DNA of 64,000 bases from Akkermansiaceae bacterium. Lineage in GTDB: Bacteria > Verrucomicrobiota > Verrucomicrobiia > Verrucomicrobiales > Akkermansiaceae. Numbering within the stretch: position 1 is the first letter of the stretch; each line of letters opens with the position of its first letter. Positions 21,429 through 21,510 of this stretch are shown here, piece by piece. Below the pieces are notes generated by a model. The model saw only the letters and a list, made by a program, of their open reading frames with translations, was not told where the DNA came from and made no database searches. The stretch covers positions 40,221 through 104,220 of the forward strand of contig SUVK01000001.1 of the NCBI GenBank assembly GCA_015062055.1, written 5' to 3'. The position numbers were made by a program, and so were the translations under genes.

Positions 21429-21510
21429 TGCTCGAAGGGGGACTCGAACCCCCACGGATCGCTCCACTAGATCCTTAGTCTAGCGCGTCTACCAATTCCG
21501 CCATCCGAGC
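21429..21510 (-). tRNA. tRNA-Leu with anticodon AAG
   Basis: GCTCGGA/TTCGAGC-A acceptor; long variable arm; anticodon arm CTAGA-CTAAGGA-TCTAG. Confidence 0.92.

Follow-up and report, generated by a model that had tools for sequence, protein, structure and literature searches.

The tRNA-Leu(AAG) locus

We analyzed a window of 64,000 nucleotides from an Akkermansiaceae bacterium (positions 40221-104220 of contig C71, genome G000), in which ARAGORN finds five RNA genes, tRNA-Leu(aag) as well as tRNA-Arg(acg) among them. The draft genome comprises 87 contigs totaling 2.42 Mb and is 96% complete, with 51.7% G+C. The leucine gene is an 82-nt class II tRNA gene on the minus strand (21429-21510). It is recognized both by ARAGORN, which sets its limits at 21428-21511 (-), and by Rfam model RF00005, which matches 21429-21510 (-) over its full length (model positions 1-71) with 56 bits and an E-value of 1.2e-11, the gathering score being 29 bits. 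The gene runs from G1 (21510) to the discriminator A73 (21429) and encodes no CCA; its acceptor stem is GCTCGGA/TTCGAGC. The variable region of 13 nt (tggagcgatccgt) provides a long variable arm, which is present together with A73, the discriminator that serves as a leucine identity element in bacteria. In the anticodon arm, a CTAGA/TCTAG stem closes the loop C-T-A-A-G-G-A, and direct reading of the sequence places the anticodon A34-A35-G36 at 21474-21476 (-), with A34 at 21476 (a T on the plus strand). An earlier note on this DNA had reported a class II tRNA-Leu with A34 and its anticodon at 21476-21474; it had both the position and the description right.

The promoter region and terminator that the same note claimed also have counterparts in the sequence. 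A putative sigma-70-like promoter, TTGCAA-17-TATATT (21538-21566 (-)), comes from a consensus scan only and lies about 27 nt upstream of G1, and an intrinsic-terminator-like hairpin of 13 pairs followed by a T-run (21394-21424 (-)) begins 5 nt past the 3' end of the gene. The tRNA-Arg(ACG) gene, whose product is the canonical TadA substrate and which had been said to share the window, is at 17712-17786 (-) by ARAGORN. At a distance of 110 nt from it lies a tmRNA gene (17242-17602 (-)) that encodes the tag peptide AYSNNEYAMAA.

The leucine tRNA set

ARAGORN and Rfam agree on 43 tRNAs in the draft. Its leucine tRNAs are AAG, CAA and UAA only, and neither program finds a Leu(GAG) in the 87 contigs. 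Also missing from the draft are Leu(UAG), Leu(CAG), Trp, Ile(GAU), Ala(UGC) and Ser(GGA). We considered a real loss of Leu(UAG) and Leu(CAG) and rejected it: other tRNAs are missing too, and since complete relatives, congeners among them, carry both, their absence from the draft is best read as assembly gaps. Motif searches of the draft also yielded no EF-Tu, RpoB or RpoC; like the missing tRNAs, they are probably absent through assembly gaps (rRNA operons, a collapsed tuf) and not for biological reasons.

Two complete genomes, G007 from the same genus and G094 from family f11, give the full set. When all class II tRNAs are read, the leucine tRNAs of each are exactly AAG, UAG, CAG, UAA and CAA, and GAG is absent from both. 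Five further closed or near-closed Akkermansia genomes carry AAG, UAG and CAG by pattern and no GAG. AAG takes the place of GAG in the leucine tRNA set, and the question raised in the earlier note, whether Leu(GAG) is missing, is answered by its absence from the own genome and from the complete relatives alike. The idea that f11 lacks Leu(UAG), which would have made inosine essential for reading CUA, was dropped when Leu(UAG) proved to be present in G094, with the D loop GGCAGA.

Distribution of the A34 form

Within Akkermansia, Leu(AAG) is present in 48 of 51 species genomes; the remaining three (G015 among them) are drafts without any CUY reader. Of five genomes in the genus that seemed to be without it, three carry an AAG gene with a TTCGAGC T loop. 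When the tRNA-Leu(AAG) gene was used as a DNA query against 40 relatives, the best 30 loci were all Leu(AAG), including loci in other families of the order. Across the phylum, we ran two patterns differing only at position 34 on a sample of 401 genomes. The A34 form occurs in 38 of these, in the own family f1 and in f11, a family that belongs to a different order of the class, and the G34 form occurs in 69, in other families of the class and in other classes; the two were never found in one genome of the sample. A looser pattern, applied to 60 chosen genomes whose full genes were then fetched, assigns AAG within the order to f1 (three genera), f3 (three genera), f5, f6, f7 and f8, and GAG to f2, f4 and one genus of f3. 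In g15, a sister genus with large genomes, Leu(AAG) is the same as in Luteolibacter marinus.

The anticodon stem varies among these relatives by compensatory pairs (CTAGA/TCTAG, TTAGA/TCTAA, CATGA/TCATG, CAAGA/TCTTG), which indicates that the tRNA is under selection. Because independent assemblies of 48 of 51 species and of other families have the identical anticodon, an assembly error is excluded and the A34 first read in this window is real. The earlier expectation of a switch in a single Verrucomicrobium is too narrow, given that f1, f3 in part, f5, f6, f7, f8 and f11 all have the A34 form; a survey of related genomes had been proposed there, and it finds AAG widespread in the order and GAG never alongside. 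Judged from these comparisons, A34 is an old trait, common to most families of the order and to f11 of another order.

Some observations on gene copies and labels were made along the way. Akkermansia has one copy of Leu(AAG), whereas some relatives have two a few hundred bases apart; at G029:C1:1910047-1910962, for example, two identical copies stand 833 bp from each other. The record CAMCXS010000012.1 (G463) is part of a 6.5-Mb genome, although its title reads "MAG: Akkermansia muciniphila isolate MiE-14oct19-53". Its Leu(AAG) differs by a single acceptor-stem base from that of family f3 (G036) and is unlike the Akkermansia type; the Akkermansia muciniphila label is probably wrong. In one genome from a Leu(GAG) lineage of the same class (f14), about 2 kb (G079:C69:~47-2073) hold 19 tRNA genes, among them Arg(ACG), Leu(UAA) and Leu(UAG).

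To look beyond the phylum, we ran a fixed arm pattern, GGTAGA-N7-GACTAAGGATC, over one genome per bacterial species. It matched at least 120 loci, and ARAGORN identifies 117 of the 120 among the matches listed as Leu(AAG) genes. The Verrucomicrobiota among the matches listed are Akkermansia, Akkermansiaceae, Luteolibacter, Rubritalea, other Verrucomicrobiales and some Opitutales. The same arm also appears, among the matches listed, in Lachnospiraceae/Clostridiales, in Micavibrio and other Alphaproteobacteria, in Synergistaceae and Dethiosulfovibrio (Synergistota), and in Myxococcota, Planctomycetota, Gemmatimonadota, Seleniivibrio and Dormibacteria. There are at least nine such groups outside the own one, each with its own acceptor stem, and TadA is present in 25 of 28 tested genomes that carry a pattern-matched Leu(AAG). 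Surveys place Leu(AAG) almost wholly in Bacilli and mention Mycoplasma and Prochlorococcus in passing (PMC13249217; bioRxiv 10.64898/2026.05.15.725136; PMC8007984), and we found no published report that names Verrucomicrobia or Akkermansia for tRNA-Leu(AAG). Since the arm recurs in at least nine further groups of bacteria, Leu(AAG) is less rare than these surveys say, and the description of it as rare and known from a few Firmicutes lineages, with which the earlier note began, understates its spread.

Relation to the GAG and UAG tRNAs

When the 17-nt anticodon arm is left out, the best identities of the AAG tRNAs are 0.87-0.97 to GAG tRNAs of related families, against 0.76-0.85 to UAG tRNAs and 0.76-0.89 to CAG tRNAs. 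They share the acceptor stem GCTCGG with the GAG tRNAs, that of the UAG tRNAs being GCCNGG. By these comparisons, Leu(AAG) is the orthologue of Leu(GAG). The anticodon arm has a different affinity. In the AAG arm of the order, c[at]aga/ctaagga/tct[ta]g, nucleotides C32 and A38 accompany the pairs A31-U39 and G30-C40. A GAG arm such as tacgt/ttgaggg/gcgta has U32, G38 or U38, and U31-G39 or a similar pair. The loop is UUGAGG(G/U) in every listed G34 match, and A38 is found in every A34 match. Nucleotide 34 aside, the AAG arm is up to 100% identical to Leu(UAG) arms, and its identity to GAG arms is only 0.62-0.75. The G34-to-A34 switch proposed at the outset therefore stands as far as descent from Leu(GAG) is concerned, which body identity and acceptor stem support, but not as a simple point change, since the whole arm was altered.

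The arm may have been acquired by conversion from Leu(UAG) or by convergence. It is unlikely that an AAG arm would revert to exactly the ancestral GAG sequence, and we therefore read the GAG families as having kept the old state. The proposal that the switch was independent of that in Firmicutes holds, because the body of the tRNA is verrucomicrobial. Within the phylum, the f11 form, with U32 and a different body, looks like a separate origin. A TadA tree made to count the switches left the branching within the order unresolved, and a synteny comparison found no neighbor genes common to AAG and GAG loci, even within families.

Likeness to tRNA-Arg(ACG)

The two A34 tRNAs of the window have closely similar anticodon arms. 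That of tRNA-Arg(ACG) consists of the 5' stem tctGA, the loop CTACGGA and the 3' stem TCaga, and that of tRNA-Leu(AAG) of ctaGA, CTAAGGA and TCtag, such that positions 30-40 are identical except for nucleotide 35. Among the tRNAs of the own genome with G36, only these two have C32. The arginine arm, YCUGA/CUACG(G/A)A/UCAGR, is kept across the class whether a lineage has AAG or GAG, which makes it the older arm. The arginine tRNA has G37 (loop CUACGGA) across Verrucomicrobiales and in f12, f14, f18 and f24, and A37 in f11 and f33. In Escherichia coli, tRNA-Arg(ACG) has A37, in the loop CUACGAA. The G37 of the lineage implies that a different position-37 modification stands beside the inosine and that TadA here already accepts G37.

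Five bases of the loop sit in pockets of TadA, which also reads the 32-38 pair and depends on its C-terminal helix for binding of the stem-loop (PMC8216470). The enzyme of Streptococcus pyogenes edits Leu(AAG) with the consensus YUAMGRA, and E. coli TadA does not edit the Streptococcus Leu(AAG) (bioRxiv 10.1101/2023.09.19.555891). The loop in the window, CUAAGGA, is compatible with the relaxed consensus; given the E. coli result, editing here would need a tolerant enzyme. The frame of C32, A38 and A31-U39 has a second possible explanation. It is also found in Leu(UAG) of the same genomes and of GAG lineages, and for this reason it may reflect ribosomal tuning of weak anticodons, those starting with A or U, as much as recognition by TadA.

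TadA of the lineage

A single TadA is encoded in the own genome (G000:C15:579-1058), with 159.7 bits to NF008113 (cut-off 150 bits) and intact HAE and PCPMC catalytic motifs; its closest solved relatives are the enzymes of Staphylococcus aureus and E. coli. The relatives have exactly one TadA each (29/29). In an alignment of 29 enzymes, position 142 of the own TadA is the only one that cleanly splits AAG from GAG lineages within the order. All 11 enzymes of AAG lineages of the order have Ala there, and all nine GAG-lineage enzymes examined, four of which are from the order, have Arg, Gln or Lys. This residue aligns with R152 of E. coli TadA, in the C-terminal helix, a position that is Pro in the laboratory-evolved TadA-8e.

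We rejected this position as a general determinant of AAG. The equivalent residue is Lys in family f11 despite AAG, and it is L, R, I, A, C, K or Q in AAG lineages of other phyla. It is Leu in S. aureus, whose order, Bacillales, has Leu(GAG) only (PMC13249217). Neither the alignment of the order nor the enzymes of other phyla contain a residue that marks AAG lineages in general. Ala142 is a suggestive, lineage-specific lead, and possibly it just follows the phylogeny.

Codon use and decoding

Genome-wide (1,741 long ORFs), CTC makes up 0.205 of leucine codons, CTT 0.160 and CTA 0.029. In the rpsL-rpsG-fusA-rpsJ...rplN cluster on contig C50 the fractions are 0.506, 0.290 and 0, so that CUC and CUU account for 80% of leucine codons in these ribosomal-protein genes, CUC being the commonest. 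The arginine codons of the same cluster are CGC 0.622, CGT 0.369 and CGA 0.004, and adding AtpD, GAPDH, enolase and DnaK leaves the codon picture unchanged. The statement that CTC and CTT are common in highly expressed genes is borne out, and strongly so in the ribosomal-protein cluster, where they dominate. Translational selection favors CUC and CUU, CUC most, in parallel to the codons read by the inosine-bearing arginine tRNA. Unmodified A34 pairs well with CUU only, and the favored CUC needs I:C pairing; the preference for CUC therefore fits inosine and does not fit unmodified A. Of the arguments for inosine in this analysis it is the strongest, though an indirect one. The choice that the earlier note posed, between TadA editing and decoding by unmodified A34, was the right question, and codon usage favors inosine.

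In the S10 operon on the same contig, rpsS and rplV are separated by a frame of 239 codons (G000:C50:18162-18880 (+)) whose N-terminus is hydrophobic and signal-like. This is an unusual site for a non-ribosomal gene, and the frame may be spurious.

Discussion

Our analysis points to a functional, single-copy reader of CUU and CUC that derives from Leu(GAG) and has replaced it, with A34 most likely converted to inosine by TadA; we hold this combined reading with high confidence. Both the A-to-I conversion and TadA as its agent are what we infer from sequence. In the sequence of events that we propose, tRNA-Leu(AAG) would be transcribed from its own promoter, and its rebuilt arm would present to TadA nearly the same 11 nucleotides as tRNA-Arg does (G30 A31 / C U A N G G A / U39 C40). 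The single TadA, which also edits tRNA-Arg(ACG), would then convert A34 to inosine, and the resulting anticodon IAG would pair with CUU, with CUC and weakly with CUA. Coverage of CUA and CUG would fall to tRNA-Leu(UAG) and tRNA-Leu(CAG); with Leu(UAG) present, inosine is not strictly required for CUA.

Three other readings have to be weighed against this one. That the anticodon is an assembly or sequencing error, or that the gene is a decaying or unexpressed copy beside a normal Leu(GAG), might be suspected of a draft in 87 contigs from which several expected tRNAs are missing. The recurrence of the anticodon across 48 of the 51 genomes of the genus and many families, the absence of GAG from two complete genomes and from five closed or near-closed genomes of the genus, the full-length Rfam match and the compensatory stem substitutions leave it with a negligible probability. 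A second question is that of ancestry. Instead of a stepwise change of Leu(GAG), a duplicate of Leu(UAG) in which U34 became A34 might have given rise to the AAG tRNA, or the arm might have come from Leu(UAG) by conversion. The arm itself speaks for this, matching UAG arms up to completely except at nucleotide 34 and GAG arms far less well, as does the match of an AAG query to the UAG tRNA of G033 at 88% and to the GAG tRNA of the same genome at 76%. Acceptor stem, variable arm and T arm are all of GAG type, however, with body identity up to 0.97, and we consider the UAG route unlikely overall. Its whole-gene version is excluded, as the acceptor, variable and T arms are GAG-like and only the anticodon arm is UAG-like.

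The third reading concerns the inosine. A34 might stay unmodified, or be modified in some other way, so that the tRNA reads mainly CUU, and CUC is read through an A:C mismatch or by four-way reading, as in Mycoplasma tRNA-Thr(AGU), or else by Leu(UAG). E. coli tolerates tRNAs with an unmodified A34 in four-fold boxes (bioRxiv 10.64898/2026.05.15.725136), the E. coli TadA leaves a Leu(AAG) unedited (bioRxiv 10.1101/2023.09.19.555891), Leu(UAG) is retained in the complete relatives, and no specificity-changing TadA residue is common to all AAG lineages. Set against this are the excess of CUC (0.506) over CUU (0.290) in ribosomal-protein genes, mirroring CGC for arginine, and the presence of TadA together with a loop that matches YUAMGRA. 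Moreover, the two bacterial Leu(AAG) tRNAs that have been tested, those of Oenococcus and Streptococcus, are fully edited (PMC13249217; bioRxiv 10.1101/2023.09.19.555891). We regard decoding without inosine as improbable, somewhat more so than an origin from Leu(UAG), and conversion to inosine by TadA is the reading that we retain.

The finding is that of a known mechanism in a new lineage, Verrucomicrobiota and Akkermansia, and the mechanism itself is not new. What goes beyond the earlier note is the age and breadth of the trait, the rebuilt arm, the Ala at the R152 equivalent, and the scatter of the same arm across phyla. A bolder generalization, which we offer tentatively and as less probable than its negation, is that leucine inosine is not peculiar to Lactobacillales but a recurrent bacterial solution reached through one arm copying that of Arg(ACG) (G30 A31 / C U A A G G A / U39 C40), of which Verrucomicrobiales would be one old instance, with the C-terminal helix of TadA changing in step (Ala at R152). 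If true, TadA would be expected to edit UAAG sites in Akkermansia mRNAs, as it does in S. pyogenes.

The trait is fixed in Akkermansia, a cultivable and much-studied gut genus, which would provide a second, phylogenetically independent system. Such a system bears on how a homodimeric TadA widens its substrate range, the step before the eukaryotic expansion of inosine, on which of the two partners, tRNA or enzyme, adapts to the other, and on whether a second TadA substrate brings extra editing of mRNA. In practical terms, Leu(AAG) is relevant to codon optimization and to tRNA-based profiling of Akkermansia.

The closest known system is that of the Lactobacillales (Oenococcus oeni, Streptococcus pyogenes, S. 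mutans, Lactobacillus, Lactococcus), in which TadA converts Leu(AAG) to IAG (PMC13249217; bioRxiv 10.1101/2023.09.19.555891). At the sequence level, every feature of this Leu(AAG)/TadA pair recurs here. In both, A34 replaces G34 in the CUY-reading leucine tRNA and the two never occur together, there is a single TadA of the homodimer type, the loop fits YUAMGRA, and highly expressed genes make greater use of CUU and CUC. Both have retained Leu(UAG) as well, hence the gain is not the reading of CUA. The differences lie in the host, a member of Verrucomicrobiota with 51.7% G+C and not AT-rich, and in an origin that the verrucomicrobial tRNA body marks as independent. They also lie in the substrates: the two of TadA differ here at nucleotide 35 only, the arginine tRNA already having G37, whereas the Streptococcus pair differs at 35 and 37. 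Finally, editing in Oenococcus and Streptococcus is experimentally established, and the Akkermansia system is known here from its sequence.

With bacterial tRNA-Arg (ACG to ICG), the universal TadA substrate, the leucine tRNA shares A34, the loop C-U-A-N-G-G-A, the pairs G30-C40 and A31-U39, and the favoring of the C-ending codon in highly expressed genes; it differs in having A and not C at nucleotide 35, in being a class II tRNA for another amino acid, and in having a U34 isoacceptor in its codon box. The eukaryotic tRNA-Leu (AAG to IAG), edited by ADAT2/ADAT3, has the same anticodon and the same decoding outcome and has likewise lost the G34 isoacceptor, but the editing there is done by a heterodimer that requires the entire tRNA and acts on up to eight tRNAs, in contrast to a single TadA with apparently two substrates here. 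In the Mycoplasma tRNA-Thr(AGU) type, too, the genome encodes A34 for a codon box that is four-fold. That type occurs in reduced genomes with minimal tRNA sets, and decoding of its kind would go with a minimal isoacceptor set or no TadA and a preference for U-ending codons, whereas the lineage described here has TadA, the other leucine isoacceptors (UAG and CAG, in the relatives) and a preference for the C-ending codon, with CTC above CTT.
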